Origin: Rhodospirillales bacterium
GTDB taxonomy: Bacteria > Pseudomonadota > Alphaproteobacteria > Rhodospirillales > UBA2165
Direction: 5' to 3'
DNA: 64,000 nucleotides
Assembly: GCA_022823235.1 (NCBI GenBank)
Contig: JAJDXO010000026.1
Coordinates: forward strand, 66,807-130,806
Positions 4,544 to 19,445 of this stretch are shown here, piece after piece (within the stretch, counting starts at the first letter, position 1; each line of letters opens with the position of its first letter). The notes below the pieces were generated by a model. That model was given only the letters and a program-made list of their open reading frames with translations. It had not been told where the DNA came from and made no database searches. The position numbers and the translations under genes were made by a program.

Positions 4544-4957
4544 TTACGTCGAATAGTAGTTGAGTTCGAGGATCACCCCGTTGGGATCCTTGATGAAGAT
4601 TTGATAGAGGCCGCGATCCGACAGGTCCCGGTCCCAATAGCCGATGTCGCGATCCTTCAGCAGGTTCAGGACCTCATCCGCGTCTTCGATGGTGAAGGCG
4701 ATGTGGTTGTCGATCCCGCTGTCTTCCATATCCTCCTTGGTGCCCTGGCCTTCGGGCAGCGGCGTGCCGTCCAGGTCCTCGCTCTCGTCCTTGACCAGAT
4801 GAATAATCGCCTTGTCCCCGGCATACATCCAATAGCCGGTGGATTTCAGTTTGGGCCGGAAGCCGGCCTCCAGGCCGAGAACGTCCTCGTAGAACTTTCT
4901 GCTGTCTTCCAATCGCTTGGACGCGATGGACCAGTGATCCAATGAATTAACGATCAT
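4544..4957 (-). CDS. small VOC/glyoxalase family protein
   Basis: ATG 4957 preceded by GGGGGAG. MIVNSLDHWSIASKRLEDSRKFYEDVLGL is a glyoxalase-type beta-alpha-beta-beta-beta module. The longer ORF to 5044 lacks an RBS. Confidence 0.75.
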   Translation of the reverse strand: MIVNSLDHWSIASKRLEDSRKFYEDVLGLEAGFRPKLKSTGYWMYAGDKAIIHLVKDESEDLDGTPLPEGQGTKEDMEDSGIDNHIAFTIEDADEVLNLLKDRDIGYWDRDLSDRGLYQIFIKDPNGVILELNYYST

Positions 4958-5277
4958 TTTGGGCTCCCCCCGAAATAGGCCCGCATATTGCCATGGGGGA
5001 TGAGCCTCATCCAGTCTGGGCGTTGAATTCCCGGCCAGGGTCATGGTCTGCGCGGCGCTGCCGGCCCGAGAGCGCCACCCTTCGGGTCGTGCGCCGAAAA
5101 CCCGTCCGGCGCCGCAAATATTTCCAAAGTCCGCATCATTTTGGAAAAAATGATAAAATTGTTTATTTTTAGATGTTTATTCCATATTTCGAGGTGCGCT
5201 CCCGGCCGATATCCCTCCCGATTATCCCCGGTTGGGCGAAAATTCTATGAAGTTATGAAAATAATTCAAAAAAACGC

Positions 5278-5307
5278 TTGCGACATATGCGACCGATATG
5301 GTATGGT
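5278..5307 (+). promoter_or_regulatory. candidate sigma70-type promoter (TTGCGA-18 nt-TATGGT)
   Basis: TTGCGA at 5278-5283 and TATGGT at 5302-5307, at the edge of an AT-rich tract. No downstream + strand CDS. Confidence 0.25.
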
Positions 5308-5313
5308 TTTTTC

Positions 5314-5382
5314 CTAGGATCGGGAGCTTTGCGCGCCGGTCCCGCCGTTCGAACCGCAGCCGCCGTTTCCGGCGGCATTTTT
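5314..5382 (+). ncRNA. candidate orphan small RNA (~70 nt)
   Basis: Bounded by the candidate promoter and an intrinsic terminator. Internal hairpin CGGGA..TCCCG. No coding potential supported. Purely structural prediction. Confidence 0.25.
5359..5382 (+). terminator. rho-independent terminator
   Basis: GCCGCCG-TTTC-CGGCGGC followed by ATTTTT on the + strand. The U-tract exists only in the + orientation. Confidence 0.55.
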
Positions 5383-5435
5383 ACGCCCGGCCTTTACCAC
5401 GCCGCGCAGACCATGACCCCGGTGAGACATGCGGG

Positions 5436-6560
5436 CTAAGCGCCGAATTCCCGGCGAAGCGCACTGCCGTGTTCGTCGAGAGACGGGACCGGCCCCGGTT
5501 CCCGGGGCGCGCCTGTCAGCCGCGCGGGCGGCGCGGGGATCGCGGCGGGCCCGGTCCCGGTGGCGACTTCGATCCGGCGCAGATCGGGATGACCGGAGAA
5601 CTCGGCCACCGAGTTGACCCGGCCGAACGCAATGCCCGCATTTAGAAGTTTTGCCGCCATCTCTTCGCGGTCATGTTGATCGAACACGGACTGGATCTCG
5701 GCCTCCAGCCGGTGGACGTTCTCCACCCGCAGCGCCGCGGTCGAATAGGGGCCGTCATTCGCATAGTCGGGACGGCCGAGAATGTCGGCGGCAAAGGATG
5801 CCCATTCCCGCTCGTTCTGTATGGACAGAACCAGCAGGCCGCCGTCGGCGCACCGGAAGTTCGAATAGGGGGCGATGGAGGGATGGCGAAGCCCCACCCG
5901 AGCCGGCGCCGCGCCGCCGTAGTCGTTGTGGAGCAGCGGCACCGCCATCCAGTCGGCCATGCCATCGAAAAGGGAGACCTTGATCCCCTGCCCCTTGCCC
6001 GTTTGCCGGCGGGAAATCACCGCCTCCAGGATGGCGGAATAGGCGTACATGCCCGCGGCGATATCGCAAACCGAGACTCCGACACGGCCGGGCGCCTCGG
6101 GCGTTCCGGTGATGGAGGCGAGCCCCGTCTCGGCCTGGACCAGCATGTCATAGGCCTTCATGTCCCTTGAGGGGCCCTCCTCCGCGTAGCCGGAAATGTC
6201 GGCGGTGATGAGATGCGGATGCGCCTCGCGGAGCGCCTCTCCGCCGAACCCGGCCCGATCGGCGGCCCCGGGGATCAGGTTTTGGACGAATACATCCGCT
6301 CCGGCGATCATCCGGTGAAGGAGCGCCTGGTCATCGTCATCCTTGATGTCGAGGACGATGCTTTCCTTCCCTCTGTTGAGCCATACGAAATAGGCGCTTT
6401 CACCATGAACGACACTGTCATAGGCGCGGGCGAAATCACCGCTTTCGCGCTCGATCTTGATGACCCGGGCGCCGGCATCCGCCAGCCGCGAGGTGCAATA
6501 GGGGGCGGCCACCGCCTGTTCCAGGGTGACCACCAATAGACCTTCCAGCGGACCCGTCAT
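5436..6560 (-). CDS. family III CoA-transferase (CaiB/BaiF type)
   Basis: 374 aa. N-terminus GLLVVTLEQAVAAPYCTSRLADAGARVIKIE is the family III CoA-transferase signature region. Confidence 0.85.
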   Translation of the reverse strand: MTGPLEGLLVVTLEQAVAAPYCTSRLADAGARVIKIERESGDFARAYDSVVHGESAYFVWLNRGKESIVLDIKDDDDQALLHRMIAGADVFVQNLIPGAADRAGFGGEALREAHPHLITADISGYAEEGPSRDMKAYDMLVQAETGLASITGTPEAPGRVGVSVCDIAAGMYAYSAILEAVISRRQTGKGQGIKVSLFDGMADWMAVPLLHNDYGGAAPARVGLRHPSIAPYSNFRCADGGLLVLSIQNEREWASFAADILGRPDYANDGPYSTAALRVENVHRLEAEIQSVFDQHDREEMAAKLLNAGIAFGRVNSVAEFSGHPDLRRIEVATGTGPAAIPAPPARLTGAPREPGPVPSLDEHGSALRREFGA

Positions 6561-6645
6561 GGTCCATCTCCTTCAATTGCCTTCGGCCTAGGGCTATCAG
6601 GAAACGACGGTGGAATCGAGGCACCCCGGCACTCATAATGGACGG

Positions 6646-7494
6646 ATGACTGAAACGGCCGTTCCCGTGCGCCGCACCCTGCTCTACATGCCGGGCGCCC
6701 GCATCGAGATTTATCCCAAGGCGCTCGCCAGCGGGGCCGACATCGTTTGCGTCGATCTGGAGGACGCGGTTGCCGCCGATGTGAAGGACAAGACCCGGAG
6801 CAACACACTCGCGGTCTTCGCCGACACCCATGACGGTTCCGTCGAGCGCCTGATGCGTATCAACGGGGTGGAAACCGGCGCCGGACGAGCCGATCTCGCC
6901 GCCCTCGCCGAAGCCGATGCGCCGCCGGACGGCGTGGTGATCCCCAAGTGCGGCGATCCGGACCACGTGCGTACCGTTGCCGATGCCACCAAGGGCCGCG
7001 AAATGCTCATCCACCCGCTGATCGAGTCCGCCCGCGGGCTCGAAGCGGCTTTCGAAATCGCGTCCGCCGACGAGCGGGTGGGTTTCATCATGCTGGGCTC
7101 CCAGGATATGGCCCTCGACCTCCGCGCCGAGCATGCTTGGGAACCGCTGCTCTACGCCCGGTCCCGGCTTGTCGCGGCGGCCCGCGCCGCCGGCGTCGAT
7201 GTGCTCGATGCGCCCTGGTTCCATATTCAGGACCTGGACGGGCTGGCCGCGGAAGCCCAGGCGGTACGGAAACTCGGCTTCACCGGCAAATCCTTGATCC
7301 ACCCCAAACACGTGGAGGCGGTCAACGGCGTGTTTTCACCCTCGGCGGAAGAGGTCGCCGAGGCCCGCGACCTGATCGCCAGGTTCGACGCCCAGGATCA
7401 GGCGGCGGTAATGATCGACGGCCAATTCCTGGAGCCGCCCATTATCGAGCGGCTGAAACGCATCGCGGCCGTTGGAGAAAGGATCGGTCTTTAG
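6646..7494 (+). CDS. HpcH/HpaI aldolase - citrate lyase beta (CitE)-like acyl-CoA lyase
   Basis: ATG 6646. RRTLLYMPGA..DIVCVDLEDAV matches the CitE/malyl-CoA lyase N-terminal motif. Divergent from the CoA-transferase. Confidence 0.8.
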   Translation: MTETAVPVRRTLLYMPGARIEIYPKALASGADIVCVDLEDAVAADVKDKTRSNTLAVFADTHDGSVERLMRINGVETGAGRADLAALAEADAPPDGVVIPKCGDPDHVRTVADATKGREMLIHPLIESARGLEAAFEIASADERVGFIMLGSQDMALDLRAEHAWEPLLYARSRLVAAARAAGVDVLDAPWFHIQDLDGLAAEAQAVRKLGFTGKSLIHPKHVEAVNGVFSPSAEEVAEARDLIARFDAQDQAAVMIDGQFLEPPIIERLKRIAAVGERIGL

Positions 7495-10400
7495 CTATTC
7501 CGCCGCCTCGGCCTCCGCGGGGTTCTGGTGGAACAGTTCACGAAGTGCCTTGGCCTTTTCCCGCGCCGCTTCGGCGTGCTTGTCCTTGACCGGACCATAC
7601 CCGCGGATCGACTGCGGCAGCGCGGCGAGCTCGACGGCGGTCTCATAATTGGCCGCATTCAGGTTCGACAGGATTTCGTCGAGCGTTCCCTGGTAGGCGG
7701 ACAGCAGCTTTCGCTCCATCTTGCGGTCTTCGGAGTAGCGGAAGATGTCGAGCGCCGTGCCCCGCAGGCACCTCAGTTTGGCCAGCAATTGGAGGGCAAA
7801 ATACCACGGCGCCGGATAGGCCATCTTCTCGGGCCGGCCGGTCACCGGATCGATCTTGGCGAACATCGGCGGCGCGAAGTTGAAGGCAATCTTGAAATCG
7901 CCCTCGAATTGTTCGCGAAGTTTCGCCTCGAAGCGGCCATCGGTGAACAGCCGGGCCACCTCGTACTCGTCCTTTACCGCCATCAGCTTGTAGAGGGACC
8001 GCGCGACGGCCTCGGTCAACTCGGTGCGGCCGGGCGCCACGGCGGCTTCGGCGTCGCGGACCCGTGCGACCGCTGAGCCATAGGTCTCGGCGAAGCCGGC
8101 ATTTTGATACGCCGTCAGCGATTCCACCCGCCGTTCGACGATCCGGTCGACGGTCTCGGGCGGTTGGGCATCATCCTCCCCGCCGGCCAGTTCCAGCACC
8201 CGGGACAGGTCCTCGGCGGCGACCCGTCCCCAGGCGAGCGCCCGAAGGTTGGCCTCCACCGCGACGCCATTGAGGCGGATCGCCTTTTCGAGCGAGCCGA
8301 GTGAAACCGGGAGATATCCCTTTTGGAGCGCAAAGCCGATCATGAAGATGTTGGACATGATCGTATCGCCCATAATCCGTTCCGCGAGATGTGTCGCGTT
8401 CAGCATCGTGGCGCGCTCGGCGCCGATCTGTGCCGAAATGGCATCCCGGTATCCGCCGCCGTCGATGGACATATCGGGCTGCTCCGCAAAGCTCGCCAGC
8501 GGCACCAGATGGGAATTCACGACCGCATGGCTGCGATCCCGCGACAGGGTGGAAATCATCTCCTGGCTGGCGGCGGTGATCATGTCGAACCCGAGAAGGA
8601 CATCCGTCATGCCGGCGCCGATGCGGGTCGCGGCCAAGTGCTCGACCGACCGGGCGATCCGCACGTGGGAGCCCACCGCACCGTTCTTCTGCGCCAGCCC
8701 CGTCTGATCGAGAACCGATACCGCGAGGCCGTCCAGGTGCGCGGCAACGCCGAGCAGCGCGCCGACGGTAATCACGCCGGTCCCCCCGATACCGCCCAAA
8801 AGCACATTGCAGGTGACATCGAATCCGGCGGCGGCGGGAATCGGAAGACCGGCCGCCGGATCGCCGCCTGACGCCGTTTCCGGCTTGGCGGCCTTCCTGA
8901 GCGTGCCGCCCCGGACCGTCACGAAGCTGGGGCAAAAGCCGTCGAGACAGGTGAAATCCTTGTTGCAGGAAGACTGGTCGATGGCCCGTTTGCGGCCGAA
9001 TGGCGTTTCGACCGGACGCACCGCCACGCAGTTGGACGTCTCGCCGCAATCGCCGCATCCCTCGCAGACCAGGTCGTTGATGAACATGCGCTGATCCGGA
9101 TCGGGAAACGTGCCGCGCTTGCGCCGCCGGCGCTTCTCCGCGGCGCACGTCTGGTCATAAACGATGGCCGTGGCGCCCGGCACCTCACGAAGCTCGCGCT
9201 GCAGCCGGTCCAACTCGTGGCGCTCATGAACCTCCACCCCGTCGGCGAAAGGGGTATCTTCGGGGTACTTTTCGGGCTCGTCGGTGACCACCAGGATGCG
9301 GCGCACGCCTTCGGCGCGAAGCTGACGGGTAATGTCCGCCGGCGTCAGATTGCCTTCGACCGCCTGGCCGCCGGTCAGCGCGACGGCATCATTGTACAGG
9401 ATCTTGTAGGTGATATTGACCCCGGCCCGGACCGCGGCGCGTACCGCCAGCAGGCCCGAGTGATAATAGGTGCCGTCGCCCATGTTCTGGAACATGTGCT
9501 CCGTCGTCGAGAACGGCGCCATGCCGATCCAGGTGCCGCCCTCGCCGCCCATGTGGGTATAGGCGCCGACCGAGCGGTCCATATAGACCGACAGCGTATG
9601 ACAGCCGATGCCCGCGAGGGCGCTGGACCCCTCCGGCACTTTGGTCGAGGTGTTGTGAGGACAGCCGGCGCAGAACCAGGGCTTTCGCTCGCCAAGATCG
9701 GCATTGCGGCCCTCTGCCTGGGTCCGCCGCGACAGCGCACTCAGGGCGTCGTTGAGACAGCTCCGCCGTTCCTCGTCCAGGAAGCGGCCGGCGATGATCC
9801 GCGCCAGCATCGTGCCGGTCAACTCGCCGGATTCCGGCACCAGCGCCCGGCCCTTCTCGTCCCGTTTGCCGACCAGCCGGGGCCGCCGGCCGTCGGGGAG
9901 ATCGAATAACATCCGGGCCAGCTGGTCTTCGATGATATTGCGCTTCTCCTCGACCACCAGGACCTCCTGGTGCCCGGCGCAGAACTCCCGCACCGGCTCG
10001 GGGACCAGCGGCCAGGGCATCGCCACCTTGAACACGCTGATGCCGAGGTCGGCCACCTGCCGGTCGGTCAGACCCAGCTCCTCGAAGGCCTGGCAGACAT
10101 CCGTCCATGCCTTGCCCGTCGCAACGATGCCGAGACGCTTGGTCCCGGAGGCGTGGGTCTGACGATCGAGCCTGTTCCAGCGGACGAAGGCCTGAGCCGC
10201 CTTGAGCTTGACGTCCACATGCCGGACCTCCTTGGCGACCGCCCCGTCCGGCCAACGGAAATGGACTCCATCCGGCGGAATATGAAAATCCCCGGGCTCG
10301 GTGAGTTGCATCCGGTCCAGGGAGCCGTCGACGGACGCGGCGCTCTCCACCGTATCGGCAACGCACTTGAGGCCGACCCAGCACCCCGAGTAGCGGCTGA

Positions 10401-10968
10401 GCGCGATTCCCGCCAAGCCGAAATCGAGTATTTCCTGGACGTTGGCCGGATTGAGGATGGGGATCATTGCGGCGATGAGCGCCTGTTCCGACTGGTGCGC
10501 CGTGGTCGAAGACTTGGCCATGTGGTCGTCGCCGGCAAGCACCAATACCCCGCCGTGGCTGGAGGAGCCCGCCAGGTTGCCGTGCTTGAGCGGATCGCCG
10601 GACCGGTCGACGCCGGGCCCCTTGCCGTACCAGATGGCGAACACACCGTCGTGTTTCGAGGGCTCGCTGACCCCCAACTGCTGCGTGCCCCAGCAGGCGG
10701 TCGCCGCCATATCCTCGTTGACGCCCGACTGGAAGGTGACCTGGTGTGCGTCCAGGTGCTGCTGCGCCTGCCACAGCGCCGTGTCGTATCCGCCGAGGGG
10801 CGAGCCCCGATATCCGGAAATGAACCCTGCCGTATCCAGCCCCGCGGCCTTGTCCCGGCGATGCTGAACCAACGGCAATCGAACGAGCGCCTGCACGCCG
10901 GTCACGTAAATGCGGCCGTCGTCGGAGGTGTATTTGTCGTCGAGGCTAAATGAGAATGACCCGTCCAT
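7495..10968 (-). CDS. fused indolepyruvate:ferredoxin oxidoreductase family protein (IorA-IorB type 2-oxoacid:ferredoxin oxidoreductase)
   Basis: 1157 aa. TPP motif MGDGTYYHSG, Fe-S motif CEGCGDCGETSNC, and a C-terminal IorB-like domain. Its stop abuts the CitE-like stop (7494/7495). Confidence 0.9.
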   Translation of the reverse strand: MDGSFSFSLDDKYTSDDGRIYVTGVQALVRLPLVQHRRDKAAGLDTAGFISGYRGSPLGGYDTALWQAQQHLDAHQVTFQSGVNEDMAATACWGTQQLGVSEPSKHDGVFAIWYGKGPGVDRSGDPLKHGNLAGSSSHGGVLVLAGDDHMAKSSTTAHQSEQALIAAMIPILNPANVQEILDFGLAGIALSRYSGCWVGLKCVADTVESAASVDGSLDRMQLTEPGDFHIPPDGVHFRWPDGAVAKEVRHVDVKLKAAQAFVRWNRLDRQTHASGTKRLGIVATGKAWTDVCQAFEELGLTDRQVADLGISVFKVAMPWPLVPEPVREFCAGHQEVLVVEEKRNIIEDQLARMLFDLPDGRRPRLVGKRDEKGRALVPESGELTGTMLARIIAGRFLDEERRSCLNDALSALSRRTQAEGRNADLGERKPWFCAGCPHNTSTKVPEGSSALAGIGCHTLSVYMDRSVGAYTHMGGEGGTWIGMAPFSTTEHMFQNMGDGTYYHSGLLAVRAAVRAGVNITYKILYNDAVALTGGQAVEGNLTPADITRQLRAEGVRRILVVTDEPEKYPEDTPFADGVEVHERHELDRLQRELREVPGATAIVYDQTCAAEKRRRRKRGTFPDPDQRMFINDLVCEGCGDCGETSNCVAVRPVETPFGRKRAIDQSSCNKDFTCLDGFCPSFVTVRGGTLRKAAKPETASGGDPAAGLPIPAAAGFDVTCNVLLGGIGGTGVITVGALLGVAAHLDGLAVSVLDQTGLAQKNGAVGSHVRIARSVEHLAATRIGAGMTDVLLGFDMITAASQEMISTLSRDRSHAVVNSHLVPLASFAEQPDMSIDGGGYRDAISAQIGAERATMLNATHLAERIMGDTIMSNIFMIGFALQKGYLPVSLGSLEKAIRLNGVAVEANLRALAWGRVAAEDLSRVLELAGGEDDAQPPETVDRIVERRVESLTAYQNAGFAETYGSAVARVRDAEAAVAPGRTELTEAVARSLYKLMAVKDEYEVARLFTDGRFEAKLREQFEGDFKIAFNFAPPMFAKIDPVTGRPEKMAYPAPWYFALQLLAKLRCLRGTALDIFRYSEDRKMERKLLSAYQGTLDEILSNLNAANYETAVELAALPQSIRGYGPVKDKHAEAAREKAKALRELFHQNPAEAEAAE

Positions 10969-11020
10969 CCGGACGCTGCTCCCGGTGTTTCGGTTATTTA
11001 ACCGCTTGCCGGGCCCGAGT

Positions 11021-11935
11021 TCAAACGGCGCCGGTCCGCCGTTCCTTCGCCAGCGCCTCGGCCCGCGCTTCGCGATGCACCATATACAGTCCGCTGCCGA
11101 CGATCAGCGCGGCGCCCGTCCAGACGAAGGCGTCCGGCACATCCCCCCAAATGATGAAGCCGAGAATGACCGCCCACAGGAGCACCGTATATTCGAAGGG
11201 CGCCACGGCGCCCACCGGGGCGACGACGAAGGCCTGGGTCATGCCCGCGTAGCCGATCAGGGTGAACACGCCCATGGCCGCGAAGACGGCCGCGTGCTCC
11301 AGCGTCATGGGCTTCCAGACCCAGGGGAGCGCGGCGCTTCCGATCAGCATCATCCCCAACATGACATAGAACACCAGCCGCAGCGTCGATTCGGTCTCCC
11401 TGAGCCAGCGCGCCGTGAGGTTGATGGTCGCAAAAGACAGCCCCGCCAGAAGCGCCAGGATGGCGGCCGGCTCGAAGACCCCCGCCCCCGGGCGCAGCGC
11501 GATGACCACGCCCGCGAACCCCATGAAGATGGCGAACCAGCGGTGGATACCGATGTGTTCCTTGAACAAGGGAACCGACAGCGCCGCGGTCATGAAGGTG
11601 GAGCCGAAGACGATCACCGTCACGTCGGCGAGCGGCATGTATATCAGCGCTGTGAACATCAGTGCGGGTCCCGGGAACGCCAGCAGCAGGCGGATGAAAT
11701 GACGGCCGGGGCGCCTGGTCGGCAATTCGGCGAGCCGGCCGGTCGCCGCCGCCCAAATGAGGAACGCCACGATAATGAACCAGCCCCGGACCGCCAGCAC
11801 CTGAAAGACATGATAGTCGGCGCCCACCAGCCATTTGCCGGAAGCATCGACGCCGCCCATGCCCAGCATGCCGATGATCATGCAGCCGATGCCGAACAGG
11901 CGCCGGTCGCGGGACGGCGCTTGGACGCCGGTCAT
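11021..11935 (-). CDS. DMT superfamily (EamA) permease
   Basis: 304 aa, about 10 hydrophobic segments, two EamA-like halves. Start lies 3 nt after the ligase stop. Confidence 0.8.
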   Translation of the reverse strand: MTGVQAPSRDRRLFGIGCMIIGMLGMGGVDASGKWLVGADYHVFQVLAVRGWFIIVAFLIWAAATGRLAELPTRRPGRHFIRLLLAFPGPALMFTALIYMPLADVTVIVFGSTFMTAALSVPLFKEHIGIHRWFAIFMGFAGVVIALRPGAGVFEPAAILALLAGLSFATINLTARWLRETESTLRLVFYVMLGMMLIGSAALPWVWKPMTLEHAAVFAAMGVFTLIGYAGMTQAFVVAPVGAVAPFEYTVLLWAVILGFIIWGDVPDAFVWTGAALIVGSGLYMVHREARAEALAKERRTGAV

Positions 11936-11938
11936 CGG

Positions 11939-13783
11939 TTATGCCACTTGAATGACATCGTCGCCGGGTCGGGCTTCGTAGAGCTTGGCGACGAGATCCG
12001 CCCGCCGGTCGAGGGTTGCCCGCTGATTGACGTAGCCCTTGTCGGTAATCTCGTTGGCATCGATCTGCGGCGGCTCGGTCATCAACAGGACCCGTTTCAC
12101 CGACCGGCTGGAGCCGCCCGCTTCCTTGTTGTGGGCCGCCAGCTTCCCGGCAATGAAATCGCGGACCGCCGAACTGGCGGCGATGTCGTCGGGCGATGCG
12201 TCCTCGGCCAGGCCGCCGATCTCACGGCAACCGACGGAATTGGGCCAGACCAGAAGGCCGATAAACGGCTTGTCGTGGCCGCAGACGACGGCGTCCTGGA
12301 TGGCCGGCGCCGCAGCAGCGATCAAATCCGGCCGCAGCACGCCGGGATGCACCCAGGTTCCCGTGTCCAGCTTGAAGTCCTCGGTTACCCGGCCGTCGAA
12401 CAGCAAACCCTTGGCCGGGTCGTCCGGGTCCTCGAACCGCATGCCGTCACCGAACCTGAAGAAGCCGTCCTCGTCGAACGCCGCCCGGGTGAGATCGGGG
12501 CGGCCAAGATAACCGGGGGTGATGGTCGGACCCTTGCCGCGAATCTCCATTTTCTCGGCCACCGGCGCAAGCTTCACCTCTACCCCCGGAGCCGGCACGC
12601 CCACATTGCCGGCGTGATCGATGATCCAATGGGTGGCGGTGATCATCGGCGCGGATTCGGTCGAGCCAAAGGCCGACGCCATGACGATCCGCTCGCCGAC
12701 CGTGTCCAATGCCAGCTTCTCCAGCCGCCGCCACAAATCCTGCGACAGCGCCGCGGCCGCATAAAAGATGAAGCCCAAATCCCTGAAGAAGGTCTCGCGC
12801 AGCTCCTGGTCCTGCTCCAGATACGGCACCAGCATGCCGTAACCGACGGGCACGTTGTAATGGGCGGTCGGTGAAATCTCCCGGAGATTGGCGACCGTCT
12901 TCTCGATCAGGCCGGGCGCAGGTTTCCCCTCGTCGACGTAGAAGGTCCCGCCCGTCTTCAACACCAATCCCTGGCAGAAGTTGCCCCCGAACGTGTGGTT
13001 CCAGGGCAGCCAGTCGACGAGCACCGGCGGAACCTCGGCATAGAACGGGATTTGCTGGATGTTCATCTGCTGATTGGCGCACAGCATCCGGTGGGTATTG
13101 ATTACCCCTTTCGGCATGCCGGTGGATCCGGAGGTGAAGAGGTATTTCGCCGCCGAATCGGGATCGACGGCGGCGAACGCGGCATCCACGGCTCCCGTCG
13201 CCGCGGTTCCCTGGAGCTCGCCGATTTGCGTGGCGTCTCTCCCCGGGGGAGCATCCTCGCTATAGAGGATTTCGGCGCCGCCAAAATCCACGGCGTTCAG
13301 AACCTTTTCGAACATCCCGCCGCCGGCCACGTAGACCAATCCCGGCTTCACCAACTCGTTGATCAGCTTCACCTTGGCGAAGTCCCGGCTCATCAGCGAA
13401 TAGGCCGGGGACACCGGCGCGACGGGAATGCCGACCTGCATGGCCGCCAGCGACAGAAGACCGTGATCGATGGAATTGCCCGACAACAGCATCACCGGCC
13501 TCTCCGGACCCAGGCCGCGATCGAGCAGAGCCTGGGACATGCTGTCGCAGATCGTCCGGGCCTCGGCGTATGTCACCTTCCGCCAGCCGCCGGCGGCATC
13601 GCGCTCGGCCAGATAGGTCTTGCCGGGGCGTTCCGCGGCCCAGCGACGGAGCATGTCGCCCCATTGAGTCTCATAGGCCCGCAGCGGGTCGCCATTGGTC
13701 AGCAAAACGCTCCCATCGGCGAGCGTTTCCATGCCGATGGACGGTTTTGCCAAATTTATTCGGCGAATTGGCGCGATGGCCAT
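11939..13783 (-). CDS. AMP-dependent acyl-CoA ligase, feruloyl/hydroxycinnamoyl-CoA synthase-like
   Basis: Start set at ATG 13783 (MAIAPIRRINLAKP). AMP-binding motif YLFTSGSTGMPKGV. About 614 aa, as for FCS-type ligases. The 73-codon N-terminal extension of ORF 11939..14002 overlaps the upstream SDR. Confidence 0.8.
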   Translation of the reverse strand: MAIAPIRRINLAKPSIGMETLADGSVLLTNGDPLRAYETQWGDMLRRWAAERPGKTYLAERDAAGGWRKVTYAEARTICDSMSQALLDRGLGPERPVMLLSGNSIDHGLLSLAAMQVGIPVAPVSPAYSLMSRDFAKVKLINELVKPGLVYVAGGGMFEKVLNAVDFGGAEILYSEDAPPGRDATQIGELQGTAATGAVDAAFAAVDPDSAAKYLFTSGSTGMPKGVINTHRMLCANQQMNIQQIPFYAEVPPVLVDWLPWNHTFGGNFCQGLVLKTGGTFYVDEGKPAPGLIEKTVANLREISPTAHYNVPVGYGMLVPYLEQDQELRETFFRDLGFIFYAAAALSQDLWRRLEKLALDTVGERIVMASAFGSTESAPMITATHWIIDHAGNVGVPAPGVEVKLAPVAEKMEIRGKGPTITPGYLGRPDLTRAAFDEDGFFRFGDGMRFEDPDDPAKGLLFDGRVTEDFKLDTGTWVHPGVLRPDLIAAAAPAIQDAVVCGHDKPFIGLLVWPNSVGCREIGGLAEDASPDDIAASSAVRDFIAGKLAAHNKEAGGSSRSVKRVLLMTEPPQIDANEITDKGYVNQRATLDRRADLVAKLYEARPGDDVIQVA

Positions 13784-13791
13784 GGGCGGAT

Positions 13792-14553
13792 CTACCTCGC
13801 CGCCATCCTCAGCGAGCCGTCCAGGCGGATCGTCTCGCCGTTCAGGTAGCGGTTCTCGCAAATGTGAAGCGCCAGCTCGGCATATTCCTCGGGCTTTCCG
13901 AGGCGCGCCGGGAACGGCACGCTCACGCCCAGCGACTCCTGCGCTTCGGGCGGGAGAATATCCATCAACGGGGTCAACAGAACGCCGGGCGCGATGGTGC
14001 ATACCCGTACGCCGCGCTGCGCGAGGTCGCGGGCGATGGGCAGCGTCATCGAGACCACGCCGCCCTTGGACGCCGAATAGGCCGCCTGGCCGATCTGACC
14101 GTCATAGGCGGCGACCGATGCGGTCATGATGACAACGCCCCGCTCGCCGTCCTCGAGCTCGTCGGCCTGGGTCGCATGGACCGCGAACAGGCGCGTTGCG
14201 TTGAAGGTGCCGATGAGGTTGATCGTGACGATCCTGGAGAACAGACCCAAATCGTGAGGACCATTGCGCCCGACCACCCGGGCCGCACCGCCGATGCCGG
14301 CGCAGTTGACCAAAATACGCGCCGGCCCGTGGGCGTCCATTCCGGCGTCCAGCGCAGCCTGAACGGCACTCTCGTCGGTGACGTCGCACGGCGCGAAAAC
14401 GCCGCCCAGTTCTTCGGCGACCTGCGTGCCGAGGTCTTCGTTCAGATCGGCGATCGTTATCTTCGCGCCCCTGGCGGCGAGAAGACGGGCCGCGGCCGCG
14501 CCCAGGCCCGATGCGCCGCCGGAGACAAAAGCGGCGTGTCCGTTGACGTCCAT
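13792..14553 (-). CDS. SDR family 3-hydroxyacyl-CoA dehydrogenase (HSD17B10-like)
   Basis: 253 aa. Cofactor motif FVSGGASGLG and catalytic YSASKGG. Overall resembles type-2 hydroxyacyl-CoA dehydrogenases. Confidence 0.85.
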   Translation of the reverse strand: MDVNGHAAFVSGGASGLGAAAARLLAARGAKITIADLNEDLGTQVAEELGGVFAPCDVTDESAVQAALDAGMDAHGPARILVNCAGIGGAARVVGRNGPHDLGLFSRIVTINLIGTFNATRLFAVHATQADELEDGERGVVIMTASVAAYDGQIGQAAYSASKGGVVSMTLPIARDLAQRGVRVCTIAPGVLLTPLMDILPPEAQESLGVSVPFPARLGKPEEYAELALHICENRYLNGETIRLDGSLRMAAR

Positions 14554-14570
14554 GTCGGTTCCTCGGAAGT

Positions 14571-16778
14571 TTACGTGCTGGCTCTCGGCTTATCCCAGAT
14601 GGCCGTGTTCTCGTCCGTCCGTTGGCCTTCGACCTCCGCCAACGCCGGCGTCGGATTATAATGTTCCGGTTTCGGCTTGCCGGCCGCGAGGCGCGCCTTG
14701 GCCTCTTCCGGCGTCTCCAACAGCGCCTTGGCCTCCAACGCTTCTTTCCGATCGACGGGCAACGGGTCCATGAGATTGCCCGGAGGCATCATGTCGGCAT
14801 GGTAGTACGCCATCTTCTGCTGGTCGGGATCGATCTTGTGGTCGAGATTGAGATCCCGTTGATTGACGCCCTTGCGGGGCTCGACGGCGACACCGTCGAC
14901 GATCTCCATATCAAGCCACCACTTCTTCACCGGGTTCCGGACCCCGTGGCGCAGGAAGTCGTCCAGCCACACGGCGATCGGCACCAGGAACGGTTTCGAC
15001 CAGCGCTGGTTAACCCCGAACCAGGAGGCAATGCGGGTCATGATCGGACCCTGGGCGGTCACCACCTTGTTCAAGGGGCAGGTCTTCATGCACCGCCCGC
15101 AGGCAAGACCCTTGGGATTGGTGACCCGGTAGCGGGTGCAGCGCTCCACATCCGGCTTCCACATTTCATAACCGTTGAACATCACCTTCTTGCCCCAGGA
15201 AATACTGTCGCAGGGGCATTCGCGGGCGCATTTCCAGCAATTTTCGCAGAAATACTGGAGGCCGAAATCGACCGGCCTGTCCACCTCGAGCGGGATATCG
15301 GTGGTCAGCACGACGGTCTTCAGGCGCGGACCGATAAAGGGATTGAGAATCACTTCGCCGATTCGGCTGAGTTCGCCAAGGCCCGCCCAAAGGGTTACCG
15401 GCGTGTGCAGCACGTCGGAATCCGCGTTGGTCTGGGAGCGGGACGAGAACCCGAGCTGGCGCAGCATATCGCCCATGATCCCGGCGATCTCGGCGCCCCG
15501 CATATAGGCGCGCATGGATTGCGCCCCGGAAATGAAATCGTCGCCGGAGGCCCCTTCCATGGTCTCATAGCCCTGGTCGATCAGCATCACCACCGCATAC
15601 TTGTGGTAAGGCGTGATTTCCGAACCGTCCTTCTTGTGGGAATACCAGGCGTACTCCGGCACTTCGCAAATGCCGGTTACCTCGGAGCCGAGAAAATAAC
15701 TCAGCGACTTGATGGCCCGCGCGTTCGCCGCCGGGTCGTCATAGCCGGGCGCCACCGGCGCCACGTCGCCGCCCTGGTGCGGCACCATGGACTTGATCAG
15801 GCTGACCATGGCCTGGGCGAAGGGGTGCTTGAAGGCGAACCGGTTGCGCTCGATGCGCGATTTGTCGCCGAGGTCGCCGCGGGCGGCCCGCTCGAAAAAC
15901 TCGGCGCGTTTCGGCACCCGGGGAACTTCTTCGTCGATGATCAGCGTCGTCGGTCTCTCGACCCGGTCGACCTGTTCCATCGGGAATATGCCAAGGTCGC
16001 TGCGGCGCTTCTTGCGCCGGTTCCACTCGATTCCCGGCACCGCGCCGCCGACACCAAGCCAATAGCCGAGACCCTTGGCGCTCCTCGCGCTGGCGTGCAG
16101 CGGCCGGTCGGTCTCCAGCTCGTATGCCGTCGTCACCACGGCGATCTCGAACTCCCTGCCCAGATAGGGATTGGTGATTCCGTCGCCGTCGCGCAGCGCC
16201 ACGCCGGCGATGACCGCCAACCGGTCCATATCCACGTCACCCTCGTAGGCGTCGTGGGCTCCGGACTCGAAGCCCATGAACTGGATGTGTTCGGCAACCG
16301 CGATGGCGACCTCGTAGGCCCGCAGGGACGCCGCCTCCTTTTCCAGATCGAGGCACCAGGCATGCGCCAGATTTTCAGGTTCGGGCATCCGTCCATGCGC
16401 CTGGACGATGACCACCGCATGGGTGTGGCCGGACGGCGCCGCATCGGCATACCACGCGTTCTCCGGAATTTCGCAAATGCCGACCTGAGCCACGTCCAGG
16501 AAGTAGGCGGCCCCCTTGATGTCCACTGAACGGCGATGAAGGTCATCGGGCACCGGCGCCTTGGGCGGCAACGGGTCGTTGACCCCCAACCCGCGGTAGA
16601 TGTCCATATACTTGGCAAGGGAGACGCCGAGCGGTCCCTTGTCGGCGCCGTTCGCGGCCGGCCTCGCCGCCTTGGGGCGCGCCGCTTCGCCGGCGAGCAC
16701 GCTCACATCCCGCTTCAACCGCTCGAGCGGGAACGGCCCGTATTCAAACGGCCGCTTGTCGTTGCCGAAGAAAATCAT
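14571..16778 (-). CDS. rdhA: cytoplasmic (Tat-less) reductive dehalogenase homologue, cobalamin / 2x[4Fe-4S] type
   Basis: 735 aa. FCENCWKCARECP (aa 510-522) and CGRCMKTCP (aa 560-568) are RdhA twin-cluster motifs. The core module is duplicated (aa ~80-226 and ~350-502). No RRxFLK motif and no rdhB gene. GGGAGAG RBS 6 nt upstream of ATG 16778. Confidence 0.75.
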   Translation of the reverse strand: MIFFGNDKRPFEYGPFPLERLKRDVSVLAGEAARPKAARPAANGADKGPLGVSLAKYMDIYRGLGVNDPLPPKAPVPDDLHRRSVDIKGAAYFLDVAQVGICEIPENAWYADAAPSGHTHAVVIVQAHGRMPEPENLAHAWCLDLEKEAASLRAYEVAIAVAEHIQFMGFESGAHDAYEGDVDMDRLAVIAGVALRDGDGITNPYLGREFEIAVVTTAYELETDRPLHASARSAKGLGYWLGVGGAVPGIEWNRRKKRRSDLGIFPMEQVDRVERPTTLIIDEEVPRVPKRAEFFERAARGDLGDKSRIERNRFAFKHPFAQAMVSLIKSMVPHQGGDVAPVAPGYDDPAANARAIKSLSYFLGSEVTGICEVPEYAWYSHKKDGSEITPYHKYAVVMLIDQGYETMEGASGDDFISGAQSMRAYMRGAEIAGIMGDMLRQLGFSSRSQTNADSDVLHTPVTLWAGLGELSRIGEVILNPFIGPRLKTVVLTTDIPLEVDRPVDFGLQYFCENCWKCARECPCDSISWGKKVMFNGYEMWKPDVERCTRYRVTNPKGLACGRCMKTCPLNKVVTAQGPIMTRIASWFGVNQRWSKPFLVPIAVWLDDFLRHGVRNPVKKWWLDMEIVDGVAVEPRKGVNQRDLNLDHKIDPDQQKMAYYHADMMPPGNLMDPLPVDRKEALEAKALLETPEEAKARLAAGKPKPEHYNPTPALAEVEGQRTDENTAIWDKPRAST

Positions 16779-16815
16779 TCCATCTCTCCCATCTCTTATT
16801 GTTATTCTTAATAAA

Positions 16816-16832
16816 TGTTCGGATTACGAACA
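16816..16832. promoter_or_regulatory. palindromic operator candidate TGTTCG-N5-CGAACA upstream of rdhA
   Basis: Perfect 6-bp arms nested inside ATTGTT(16798)..AACAAT(16834), in the AT-rich leader 38-54 nt upstream of the rdhA ATG. Confidence 0.35.
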
Positions 16833-16994
16833 ATATGCCGATTATGCACGATCATACCATAGACGCAATTACGGCGTTTGAATGGATTGCGACAAGTCCG
16901 ACTGGTGGAAAGTCGCCGGTTTGGAGTTGATGGGCAGGGGCATTGCTTGATCCGGCGCCCGTGCTATGACTTGGTTCAACCTCGGTAGCCGCGG

Positions 16995-18155
16995 ATGGCG
17001 CAGATGAGCCCGACTTCCAACCTCGGACCCAACCAAACCCTGATCGGCCGGCCCGGCTCGCGCCATCGGCTCGCAACGCCGGCGCTGATCGTCGAGCTGG
17101 GCGCGCTCGAACGCAACATTGCCAAAATGGCCCGGGATCATGCGGCGATCGGTCTCGATCTCCGGCCCCACGCCAAGACGCATAAATCCGCGGCCATAGC
17201 CCGCAAGCAGATCGATGCGGGTGCCCTGGGAGTCTGCTGCGCCACGCTCCGCGAGGCCGAAGCCATGGCGGCCGCCGATATTCCCGGCGTCCACCTCTCC
17301 TCGCCCGTGGTCGGCGACGGCAAGCTGCGCCGGCTCGCGGCACTCAACGCCGAAGCCGAGGGGCTGATGGTGGTGGCGGACAATCAGCAAAACCTGGCGC
17401 AACTCGATGAAGCCGCCGAAGCGAGCGGCGACTCCCTGAACGTGCTGGTCGATATTGATGTGGGCATGGCGCGAACCGGCGTCGGGACGGTGGAAGGCGC
17501 GGTGCGCCTGGCCCGGGCCGTATCGGATGCGGAATATCTAACCTACAGGGGAATCCAGGGATATTCCGGGAGGGTTCAGCACATCGAACGCCTCGGCGAG
17601 CGGACGGAAGTGTACGGGGCTCACCTCGATCACCTGCGCGATGTCGTCGAGGCGTTGAGAGATGCCGGTCTGGCGCCGGAAATCGTCTCGGGTGGCGGCA
17701 CCGGCACCCATGGGATCGACCGTGAGGCGGGCCTGTTCACCGAACACCAGGCGGGCTCCTACATCTTCATGGATGTGGAGTACAACGCGGTCGAATTCGA
17801 CGGAACCGGCGAGCCCCCCTTTGAAACCGCGCTGTTCGTCCAGTGCTCGGTGGTGAGCAACAACGCCGAGGGTTTCGTCACCATCGACGGCGGCTTCAAG
17901 TGTTTCGCCACCGACGGCCCCAAGCCCCGGATCGCCGCAACAAGTATCGAGGGCGCCGGGTTCGACCGGTTCGGCGACGAACACGGCAAGGTCATTCTCC
18001 CTGAGGGCGCAAACGAGAAGCCCGGTCTCGGCGACTCGATCCTGCTGATCACCCCCCACTGCGACCCGACGGTCAATCTCCACGACTACTATCACGTCGT
18101 CGACGGCGATACGCTGGTCGATATCTGGCCGGTGGACGCCCGGGGCGTTTTGTAG
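16995..18155 (+). CDS. DSD1-family PLP enzyme (D-serine dehydratase / D-threonine aldolase / D-3-hydroxyaspartate-type, alanine-racemase N-fold)
   Basis: 386 aa. PLP-lysine motif RPHAKTHKS. C-terminal HCDPTVNLHD is typical of the family. Confidence 0.8.
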   Translation: MAQMSPTSNLGPNQTLIGRPGSRHRLATPALIVELGALERNIAKMARDHAAIGLDLRPHAKTHKSAAIARKQIDAGALGVCCATLREAEAMAAADIPGVHLSSPVVGDGKLRRLAALNAEAEGLMVVADNQQNLAQLDEAAEASGDSLNVLVDIDVGMARTGVGTVEGAVRLARAVSDAEYLTYRGIQGYSGRVQHIERLGERTEVYGAHLDHLRDVVEALRDAGLAPEIVSGGGTGTHGIDREAGLFTEHQAGSYIFMDVEYNAVEFDGTGEPPFETALFVQCSVVSNNAEGFVTIDGGFKCFATDGPKPRIAATSIEGAGFDRFGDEHGKVILPEGANEKPGLGDSILLITPHCDPTVNLHDYYHVVDGDTLVDIWPVDARGVL

Positions 18156-18203
18156 CGGGTTCATCGAAGACGGGGAACGGATTCCCGGGGACGTGGATTA
18201 GGA

Positions 18204-19445
18204 TCACACCCCACCCCGTCGGCGCAAGGCGCCGTTGCGGTTGAGCCATAGGAAGTACGCCCAGGCGGCAAGGGCGAGCATCGCCGCGGTGATGATGGGC
18301 GCGGTCAGCCCGAAGGCCGAGGCGCCGAGCCCGAGAAACAAGGCCCCTAGCGCGGGAAATGCGCGGAAGGTCGTCCCCATGAGGCCCATGACCCTGGCCC
18401 TCATGTGGCCGGCGACGACACTCTGGACAATGATCTGCCCCGCGACCGACACGGTGTTGGTGCCGAACCCGGCGACCGCGACCAGGGCCAGTGCAATCCA
18501 GAAGTTCGCCGTCAGGCCGAAGGCGATCATCGCCAGCGCGCCGATGCATAGATTGACGCCAAATACCCGCGCGAGCCCGGTGGCCCGGCCCCTGACCGCC
18601 AGCCAGAGGGACGAGAAAACCGCACCCAAGCCGAACCCCGCCAGCAGCCAGGCGAGGCCGCTTTCGCCGCGTCCGAAAATGTCGACGGCGAACGCCGGCA
18701 TGAGTTCGGGCGCCGAGCGCAGGCAAATTCCCATGACGGCGGCGAACAGGATGAAGGTGCGAAGATGCAGATTGCCCGCCGCGTAGGAGAGGCCGTCCTT
18801 GAAGTCCGCAAGGATGCCCTGGGACGACTCCTGACGTTCCTCCGGCTCGATGGTCCGGACCAAATACAGCATGACGACGAAATAGACGAAGCCGACGGTG
18901 ATCAACGCGAAGACGACGCCCGGAGAATACGCCACCAACAACGGTCCGGTGACGGCGGGCCCGATAAACCGGCCGGTCTGAACGGACCCCGACTGCAAGG
19001 CGACCGCGGGAGAGATGTGGTCGCGGGGGACGACCTTGGCCACCAGCGCCAAGTGCGCGGGGTTGGAAAATCCGGCGACGCACCCCTGCCCGAACGAGAA
19101 AACCAACAGCAGGACGGGCGTCATGATGCCGCCGAGGGTCGCAATGGCGATCAACGCGATACTCAGCGCCCACACCATTTGAGCGAGGCGGCCGACGCGC
19201 AGCGAGCCGTACTTGTCGACCACCGCGCCGGCGATGGGCCCCAGGAGGATCATCGGCACCATCTCGGTGAAGACGACGAAGCCGAGCCATTTCGGATCTT
19301 CAGTCAGCTGCCAGGTCAGCCAGCCGAGCGCCGTCCGGTAAGCCCAGAAGCACACCGTAATGACCGACATGCCGTACCAGTAGCGCCGGAAATTGACGTT
19401 GGACATGGCCCGGCTGATGCCGCCGAGCGCCTCTGGTCCGGCCAT
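18204..19445 (-). CDS. MFS transporter (MFS_3 / enterobactin-exporter-like)
   Basis: 413 aa, about 12 TM segments. N-terminal NFRRYWYGMSVI and GPIAGAVVDKY motifs. Confidence 0.8.
   Translation of the reverse strand: MAGPEALGGISRAMSNVNFRRYWYGMSVITVCFWAYRTALGWLTWQLTEDPKWLGFVVFTEMVPMILLGPIAGAVVDKYGSLRVGRLAQMVWALSIALIAIATLGGIMTPVLLLVFSFGQGCVAGFSNPAHLALVAKVVPRDHISPAVALQSGSVQTGRFIGPAVTGPLLVAYSPGVVFALITVGFVYFVVMLYLVRTIEPEERQESSQGILADFKDGLSYAAGNLHLRTFILFAAVMGICLRSAPELMPAFAVDIFGRGESGLAWLLAGFGLGAVFSSLWLAVRGRATGLARVFGVNLCIGALAMIAFGLTANFWIALALVAVAGFGTNTVSVAGQIIVQSVVAGHMRARVMGLMGTTFRAFPALGALFLGLGASAFGLTAPIITAAMLALAAWAYFLWLNRNGALRRRGGV

Follow-up and report, generated by a model that had tools for sequence, protein, structure and literature searches.

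The DNA analysed here, referred to as the window, is a stretch of 64,000 nucleotides (nt; 64 kb) from a Rhodospirillales bacterium (NCBI GenBank assembly GCA_022823235.1, contig JAJDXO010000026.1, positions 66,807 to 130,806). Its subject is rdhA, a minus-strand gene that, as the original prediction from sequence had it, forms an open reading frame (ORF) of 735 amino acids (aa) starting with ATG, with a GGGAGAG Shine-Dalgarno sequence immediately 5′ of the start. It heads a co-directional string of five genes, followed by those for a short-chain dehydrogenase/reductase (SDR), an acyl-CoA synthetase (hereafter the ligase), an EamA-family transporter, and a fused protein of the indolepyruvate:ferredoxin oxidoreductase (IOR) family, with intergenic gaps of only 17, 8, 3, and 52 nt, the SDR gene beginning 17 nt past the rdhA stop codon (Table 1). 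Upstream lie a 216-nt intergenic region and a divergent gene for a BhcC-like aldolase, and the window holds no second rdhA. Sequence and model together make it very probable that the product, RdhA, is a catabolic reductive dehalogenase belonging to the reductase-less (“truncated”) NpRdhA subfamily, a soluble enzyme of the monomer type located in the cytoplasm, in line with the original prediction.

Table 1. Features of the rdhA locus, in window coordinates, with the evidence for each.
Feature	Position	Strand	Basis
rdhA (735 aa; predicted cytoplasmic catabolic reductive dehalogenase, reductase-less NpRdhA type)	14571..16778	-	ORF, TIGR02486, 4RAS_A match, Foldseek
Vestigial N-terminal copy of cobalamin-binding core, aa ~79-228	16095..16544	-	33% identity, E 4e-21, to aa 345-504; 36% to NpRdhA N-domain
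Inter-domain linker, aa ~229-345, with pocket residues F294, F295, R311, F314, A315	15744..16094	-	Mapping onto NpRdhA F290/F291/K307/F310/P311
Predicted functional cobalamin-binding core, aa ~346-505, with S421, M422, Y425, N451, K487	15264..15743	-	62.5% identity to NpRdhA
Two-[4Fe-4S] ferredoxin-like domain, aa ~506-575, with eight Cys and Arg551	15054..15263	-	70% identity to NpRdhA
Family-specific C-terminal extension, aa 576-735	14574..15053	-	NpRdhA alignment to residue 701; invariant residues; tail-only search
Perfect palindrome TGTTCG-N5-CGAACA, candidate operator	16816..16832	.	Sequence; AT-rich stretch ~38 nt upstream of rdhA start
SDR oxidoreductase, 253 aa	13792..14553	-	PF00106/PF13561; ribosome-binding site and spacing
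Acyl-CoA synthetase, 614 aa, PRK12582 subfamily	11939..13783	-	NCBIfam 830 bits vs cutoff 777; publicly labelled “feruloyl-CoA synthase”
EamA-family transporter, 304 aa	11021..11935	-	PF00892; 3 nt past ligase gene
Fused IOR-family protein, 1157 aa	7495..10968	-	PRK13030 1590.8 bits vs cutoff 816; PF01558, PF20169

At the level of sequence, the decisive result for the identity of RdhA is its end-to-end match to NpRdhA (PDB 4RAS and 6ZXU, 704 aa): in a phmmer comparison with proteins of known structure, residues 3-705 align with NpRdhA residues 3-701 (E 7.6e-194), the same comparison giving E 5.8e-20 for the respiratory enzyme PceA and 0.07 for the epoxyqueuosine reductase QueG. The two proteins are 47.9% identical over 687 aligned positions, with regional values rising from 36% (N-domain) through 40.5% (C-terminal extension) and 45.5% (linker) to 62.5% (cobalamin core) and 70% (Fe-S domain). 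Of the two profile hidden Markov models (HMMs) that the original prediction had named as a check, the NCBIfam model for reductive dehalogenases (RDH), TIGR02486, matches in two stretches with 164.5 bits against a cutoff of 160.35 (E 5.2e-48), and that for QueG, TIGR00276, fails with 21.5 bits against a cutoff of 200. An AlphaFold2 (AF2) model built on 41 homologues, with a predicted template modeling (TM) score (pTM) of 0.87 and a mean predicted local distance difference test (pLDDT) of 79.8, was superposed by Foldseek on all NpRdhA chains over ~710 columns with TM-scores of 0.85 (query) and 0.90 (target), NpRdhA ranking first, PceA second (target TM ~0.5), and QueG third (~0.35). Neither of the outcomes held in advance to speak against the prediction, a best match to QueG or a ferredoxin or a fold devoid of a cobalamin-binding core, was thus encountered, and cobalamin binding in the core domain is predicted from its 62.5% identity to that of NpRdhA and the superposing fold. 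A soluble, cytoplasmic enzyme is also what the remaining features describe: the first 80 residues contain no pair of adjacent arginines and no motif resembling a twin-arginine translocation (Tat) signal, no hydrophobic or membrane segment is found in the protein (maximum Kyte-Doolittle 19-residue mean, 1.06), and independent gene calls on a public contig carrying the exact protein place no small rdhB-type gene on either side of rdhA, so that on the missing leader and the missing anchor gene, too, the earlier reading stands.

Two cysteine motifs of the RdhA patterns CxxCxxCxxxCP and C...CxxCxxxCP furnish most of the ligands expected of a pair of [4Fe-4S] clusters, namely FCENCWKCARECP (Cys511/514/517/521, nt 15213-15251) and CGRCMKTCP (Cys560/563/567, nt 15075-15101); both had been read correctly from the translation, as had their overall range of nt 15075-15248, and to these seven residues is now added Cys547, the eighth ligand, located between the motifs. 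All eight map one-to-one onto NpRdhA C512/515/518/522/548/561/564/568. Correspondence extends to the active site, where structural work on NpRdhA has assigned F290, F310, P311, A419, and M423 to the hydrophobic wall of the pocket, K488, R552, and S422 to the polar site that contacts the phenolic oxygen, and Y426 to proton donation, with K307 at the pocket entrance and F291 and N452 adjusting upon binding (PMC7565698). The catalytic residues are identical in RdhA (Y426 corresponding to Tyr425, K488 to Lys487, and R552 to Arg551), so that the Tyr/Lys/Arg triad named in the original prediction is conserved, and so are F290 (F294), F291 (F295), F310 (F314), S422 (S421), M423 (M422), and, assigned by sequence register, N452 (N451). 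Most of the hydrophobic pocket for the substrate is thereby retained; at the pocket position W416 of NpRdhA, RdhA has Phe415. Across 41 aligned homologues from the clade (60-80% identity), the eight cysteines, Y425, K487, R551, S421, G418, F294, F314, and N451 are invariant and M422 nearly so (≥90%).

The N-terminal half of RdhA repeats its core, as the original prediction had noticed in two copies of a ~150-aa module. Self-alignment by BLASTP of aa 79-230 with aa 345-504 gives 33% identity (50/152; E 4e-21) and includes the blocks IK..YFL...GICE.PE.AWY, AVV, and V.TT..LE.DRP that had been listed, and the predicted order of secondary-structure elements, H-E-E-H-E-H-E-E, is repeated in both copies. 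Glu211 stands where the N-terminal copy would have the catalytic lysine, and Tyr155 where it would have the tyrosine, although Tyr155 is conserved neither in the clade nor in NpRdhA. No Fe-S domain adjoins this copy, which therefore lacks a counterpart of Arg551. The equivalent domain of NpRdhA is unable to bind cobalamin and imitates the interface through which respiratory enzymes dimerize, and such a vestigial duplication is a hallmark of catabolic RdhAs (PMC10463259); judged by sequence, the internal repeat of RdhA is this same, already described vestigial copy. A shorter relative is encoded at a locus in GCA_964343605.1 (L084, contig CAYFKJ010000002.1, 5173-6510), where a 445-aa RdhA, 53% identical to aa 255-697 and scoring 178 bits with TIGR02486, is entirely without the vestigial N-terminal domain, no separate ORF for which lies within 7 kb; the gene order there is rdhA-marR-ligase-methyltransferase-LysE, the ligase being 59% identical to the acyl-CoA synthetase of the window, and a 405-aa protein (P0179) resembles this RdhA. 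Since published descriptions make the duplication the hallmark of the family, the L084 protein may represent a further catabolic-RdhA architecture.

The C-terminal residues ~580-735, which the original prediction had set apart as a tail without a recognizable motif, do exist as such a segment, and the missing motif has found its answer in NpRdhA. Its alignment with NpRdhA reaches residue 701 of the 704 in that protein; many of the tail residues as far as Tyr707 are invariant within the clade, and only the last ~28 are poorly conserved. It is mostly helical in the AF2 model, where only the final block, aa 731-735, falls below a mean pLDDT of 50 (46 in the final residues). Searched for by itself among 1.84 billion representative proteins, the tail was found in 157, essentially RdhA fragments, RdhAs of ~730 aa, and proteins of 1041 and 1075 aa in which it is preceded by the 4Fe-4S domain and followed by a C-terminal 2Fe-2S (Fer2) domain and which, from this layout, would be members of the self-sufficient, reductase-fused RdhA subfamily. 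On these alignments the tail is a conserved, family-specific module and not a novel appendage, a C-terminal extension common to reductase-less and reductase-fused catabolic RdhAs. Three tail-bearing proteins of 430-450 aa (P0128, P0138, and P0139) are internally deleted or frameshifted RdhAs, one without the Fe-S domain and one without the core, and are probably assembly artefacts or pseudogenes rather than new architectures.

Compared with known systems, RdhA is similar to NpRdhA in length (735 versus 704 aa) and built from the same five parts, the vestigial N-domain and the C-terminal extension among them, and neither has a Tat signal, an RdhB, or a fused reductase; the differences, besides those in the pocket, are the ~30 additional, poorly conserved C-terminal residues of RdhA and its neighbours, an SDR, an acyl-CoA synthetase, an EamA transporter, and an IOR-family enzyme. 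BhbA of Comamonas sp. 7D-2 and JtRdhA of Jhaorihella thermophila, compared here by description, are likewise cytoplasmic, oxygen-tolerant, and catabolic and bear the vestigial duplication (PMC10463259), but they carry a fused phthalate-dioxygenase-reductase-like domain with flavin mononucleotide (FMN) and 2Fe-2S centers and use NADPH directly. The 735-aa RdhA has no Fer2 or flavin-reductase match and stops after the C-terminal extension; unlike BhbA and JtRdhA, it must therefore use a separate electron donor. The gene thus adds to a known, structurally characterized subfamily, every testable defining feature of which it displays, and does not specify a new kind of enzyme.

Dehalogenase activity of RdhA is predicted by homology with NpRdhA, BhbA, and JtRdhA, and by analogy with these three enzymes the reaction would proceed as follows. 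A low-potential system separate from RdhA, based on ferredoxin or flavodoxin, would deliver the electrons, which the two [4Fe-4S] clusters would relay to the cobalamin; an ortho-halogenated phenolic substrate would be bound so that its halogen lies above the cobalt and Lys487, Arg551, and Ser421 hold the phenolate; the carbon-halogen bond would be reductively cleaved, with Tyr425 protonating the carbon; and the product would enter carbon catabolism, not respiration. All characterized catabolic RdhAs are specific for ortho-halogenated phenols, and JtRdhA converts 3-bromo-4-hydroxyphenylacetate and supports growth on it (PMC10463259). The SDR and the hydroxycinnamoyl/feruloyl-CoA-synthase-like ligase beside rdhA hint at brominated 4-hydroxyphenyl acids as substrates; taking into account also the transport and phenylacetate-type genes found near relatives (see below), our guess would be acids of the benzoate, phenylacetate, or cinnamate type. 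As a whole, the neighbours are compatible with, and hint at, a route by which 4-hydroxyphenyl carboxylic acids are taken up and then catabolized in a CoA-dependent manner.

How far these neighbours belong to rdhA can be gauged from related loci. Among 80 of these, the full order rdhA-SDR-ligase-EamA-IOR recurs only in five metagenome-assembled genomes (MAGs) at 96-98% identity. At a locus with an 80%-identical rdhA (L086, 8001-18208), the rdhA-SDR pair, with the SDR directly downstream, and the EamA-IOR pair are retained, and an operon on the opposite strand for a tripartite ATP-independent periplasmic (TRAP) transporter, DctPQM, sits in the place of the ligase and splits the two pairs; next to a 76%-identical relative (L087, 1-10232), two DctP genes and DctQM lie divergently upstream, so that TRAP carboxylate uptake systems are recurrent beside this clade. 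A 59%-identical relative (L065) has a 55%-identical SDR 4.9 kb downstream and an EamA gene also within 5.5 kb. The SDR is a conserved partner gene of rdhA within the close clade. A conserved operon across the family was considered and rejected, the SDR and AMP-ligase “clusters” seen elsewhere being generic family members at variable distances, as was an independent conserved SDR-ligase-EamA-IOR module, homologues of the ligase occurring in unrelated contexts. At seven Woeseiaceae-type gammaproteobacterial loci (including L012, L016, L020, L021, L023, and L076), a paaA gene for a phenylacetyl-CoA oxygenase of the PaaA/PaaC family (PF05138, 338 bits) is the next gene, ~220 nt downstream of rdhA, an arrangement that hints at a link to phenylacetate-type catabolism. 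The flanks of the five-gene string in the window comprise, at 4544-7494, a glyoxalase-fold protein, a family-III CoA-transferase, and a RipC/CitE-like C-C lyase, and, at 16995-18155, divergent from rdhA, the BhcC-like homologue of 3-hydroxy-D-aspartate aldolase (292 bits against an equivalog cutoff of 690), all of them further genes of CoA-linked and small-acid catabolism. Between rdhA and the aldolase gene, the palindrome TGTTCG-N5-CGAACA has its sole exact copy within the window; across six related sequences the arms stay the same and the 5-nt spacer changes, a pattern by which it may be the operator for some regulator. Promoter and terminator scanning of positions 7000-18500 yielded no more sites than shuffled sequence, and operon boundaries were not obtained.

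For the supply of electrons, a conserved neighbouring donor across the family was likewise rejected, none being present with any regularity at 76 related loci, and RdhA presumably draws its electrons from ferredoxin or flavodoxin of a housekeeping system; NpRdhA, too, depends for its activity in vitro on a ferredoxin system that is not its cognate one (PMC10463259). With no conserved donor nearby, the question of how reductase-less enzymes are reduced in vivo is restated. One answer would be that the five co-directional genes constitute one functional unit, in which the fused IOR, as an indolepyruvate/arylpyruvate:ferredoxin oxidoreductase, would oxidize an aryl-2-oxoacid derived from halogenated tyrosine-type metabolites and the ferredoxin thereby reduced would drive the reductase-less RdhA. 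The short gaps between the genes favour it, as does the continued proximity of rdhA, SDR, EamA, and IOR at L086. It is weakened by the opposite-strand TRAP operon that separates the two gene pairs there and by the lack of any IOR-family gene near the other 75 loci, save a weak match of 25% identity (L068), and because IOR otherwise accompanies rdhA only within the close clade and is cut off from it in L086, we regard a single functional unit as very unlikely. Were it true, IOR would be the physiological source of electrons long sought for the “truncated” catabolic RdhAs, and the gene string would encode a pathway dedicated to brominated 4-hydroxyphenyl acids of natural origin.

Several observations weigh against a catabolic reductive dehalogenase of the NpRdhA type. 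The TIGR02486 cutoff is exceeded only narrowly, and a Pfam scan of RdhA returns nothing but a sub-threshold, generic Fer4_7 match; a check by Pfam only would have resembled the outcome that speaks for a mere ferredoxin-domain protein and is misleading by itself. The AF2 model is of low confidence in the cofactor-dependent Fe-S domain and the loop 406-414, as expected when cofactors are absent, and therefore cannot demonstrate cofactor binding. No ferredoxin, flavodoxin, or ferredoxin-reductase gene is present in the window, where the lone match to a 2Fe-2S-like pattern is a spurious ORF of low complexity, and small ferredoxin-like ORFs occur near 4 of the 76 related loci and are mostly spurious. 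An Rfam scan of the whole window found no cobalamin riboswitch or any other RNA family. Conservation of the gene context is confined to relatives of about 80% identity or more, which makes it weak ground for deducing a substrate from neighbours. Finally, three pocket positions differ from NpRdhA, K307 being replaced by R311, P311 by A315, and A419 by G418, and the substrate may therefore differ as well. In NpRdhA, A419 lines the pocket of the second, non-ligating bromine, and the A419M change shifts preference to mono-halogenated substrates (PMC7565698); given that location, the invariant Gly418 should keep or enlarge the space for a second ortho substituent, and Gly418, Ala315, and Arg311 together suggest a slightly roomier site for it. 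These substitutions are also an argument for an enzyme of the catabolic RdhA family with another physiological reaction, which might have some other halogenated scaffold as its target or, within a CoA-linked pathway for aromatics, might remove a leaving group that is not a halogen. The extreme abundance of the clade and its variable contexts, the SDR and feruloyl-CoA-synthase-like ligase adjoining rdhA, and published docking that proposes aliphatic substrates for cytosolic RdhAs (PMC12219181) point the same way, yet the phenolate-binding Lys/Arg/Ser triad and the proton-donor Tyr are invariant, and the ortho-halophenol specificity common to the characterized catabolic enzymes (PMC10463259) argues against it, leaving such a departure unlikely.

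Readings outside the catabolic family fare far worse. A respiratory enzyme for organohalide respiration would also match the RDH HMM and possess the two Fe-S motifs, and RdhA does have a distant similarity to PceA of Sulfurospirillum multivorans (PDB 4UQU; RDH complex 8Q4H), with which it shares the cobalamin core and the domain with two [4Fe-4S] clusters (Foldseek probability 1.0). PceA, however, matches only the core, at a TM-score of ~0.5 and 17-19% identity, and respiratory RdhAs are dimeric enzymes with a Tat leader and an RdhB anchor and without the vestigial N-domain and C-terminal extension; RdhA lacks the Tat signal, any transmembrane helix, and rdhB and has both of these parts specific to catabolic RdhAs, so that sequence contradicts organohalide respiration and leaves it a negligible probability. 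An epoxyqueuosine reductase or a generic ferredoxin-domain protein might be thought of from the Pfam result, limited to Fer4-type matches, and from the membership of QueG (PDB 5D08 and 5D6S) in the same superfamily of class-III B12 proteins with two [4Fe-4S] clusters, but the failed QueG profile and the E of 0.07 for QueG structures already contradict it, as do Foldseek TM-scores of 0.17-0.19 (query) and 0.31-0.37 (target), the fold match covering only ~270 columns at a TM-score of about ≤0.37, and it is scarcely credible.

The family to which the NpRdhA-type enzyme of the window belongs, one of B12- and iron-sulfur-dependent enzymes by which aerobic bacteria remove bromine or chlorine from phenolics intracellularly, is very large, with thousands of homologues in proteobacterial genomes and MAGs. 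A word-indexed search recovered at least 4974 proteins at E ≤1e-10 among 8000 candidates, with identities descending smoothly from 98%, and a scan of species-representative genomes gave at least 588 loci. The closest relatives (96-98% identity) are from Rhodospirillales MAGs, and the exact protein is present on a 264-kb metagenome scaffold of the European Nucleotide Archive (ENA); further carriers are Woeseiaceae and other Gammaproteobacteria, Sneathiellales, Hyphomicrobiales, Burkholderiales, and the cultured Oceanibacterium hippocampi. A search for the habitat of the source sample found nothing, and the labels of some MAGs hint at a possible origin from a sponge symbiont. Metagenome surveys have already reported cytosolic rdhA-like genes whose products have TM-scores of 0.92-0.95 to NpRdhA and which often adjoin genes for IclR/MarR regulators and β-oxidation (PMC12219181), and a Roseobacter homologue debrominates 2,6-dibromophenol (PMC13101508). 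Against this background the current picture of the catabolic RdhA family is unchanged by the gene described here. What the comparison brings out is that an abundant clade holds an invariant glycine at the NpRdhA Ala419 position, shown by mutagenesis to tune the preference between mono- and di-halogenated substrates, and that an uncultured Rhodospirillales lineage carries one more intact and, judging from its sequence, probably functional cytoplasmic debrominase or dechlorinase, in a family that bears on natural organohalogen cycling in marine and soil environments and on aerobic bioremediation.

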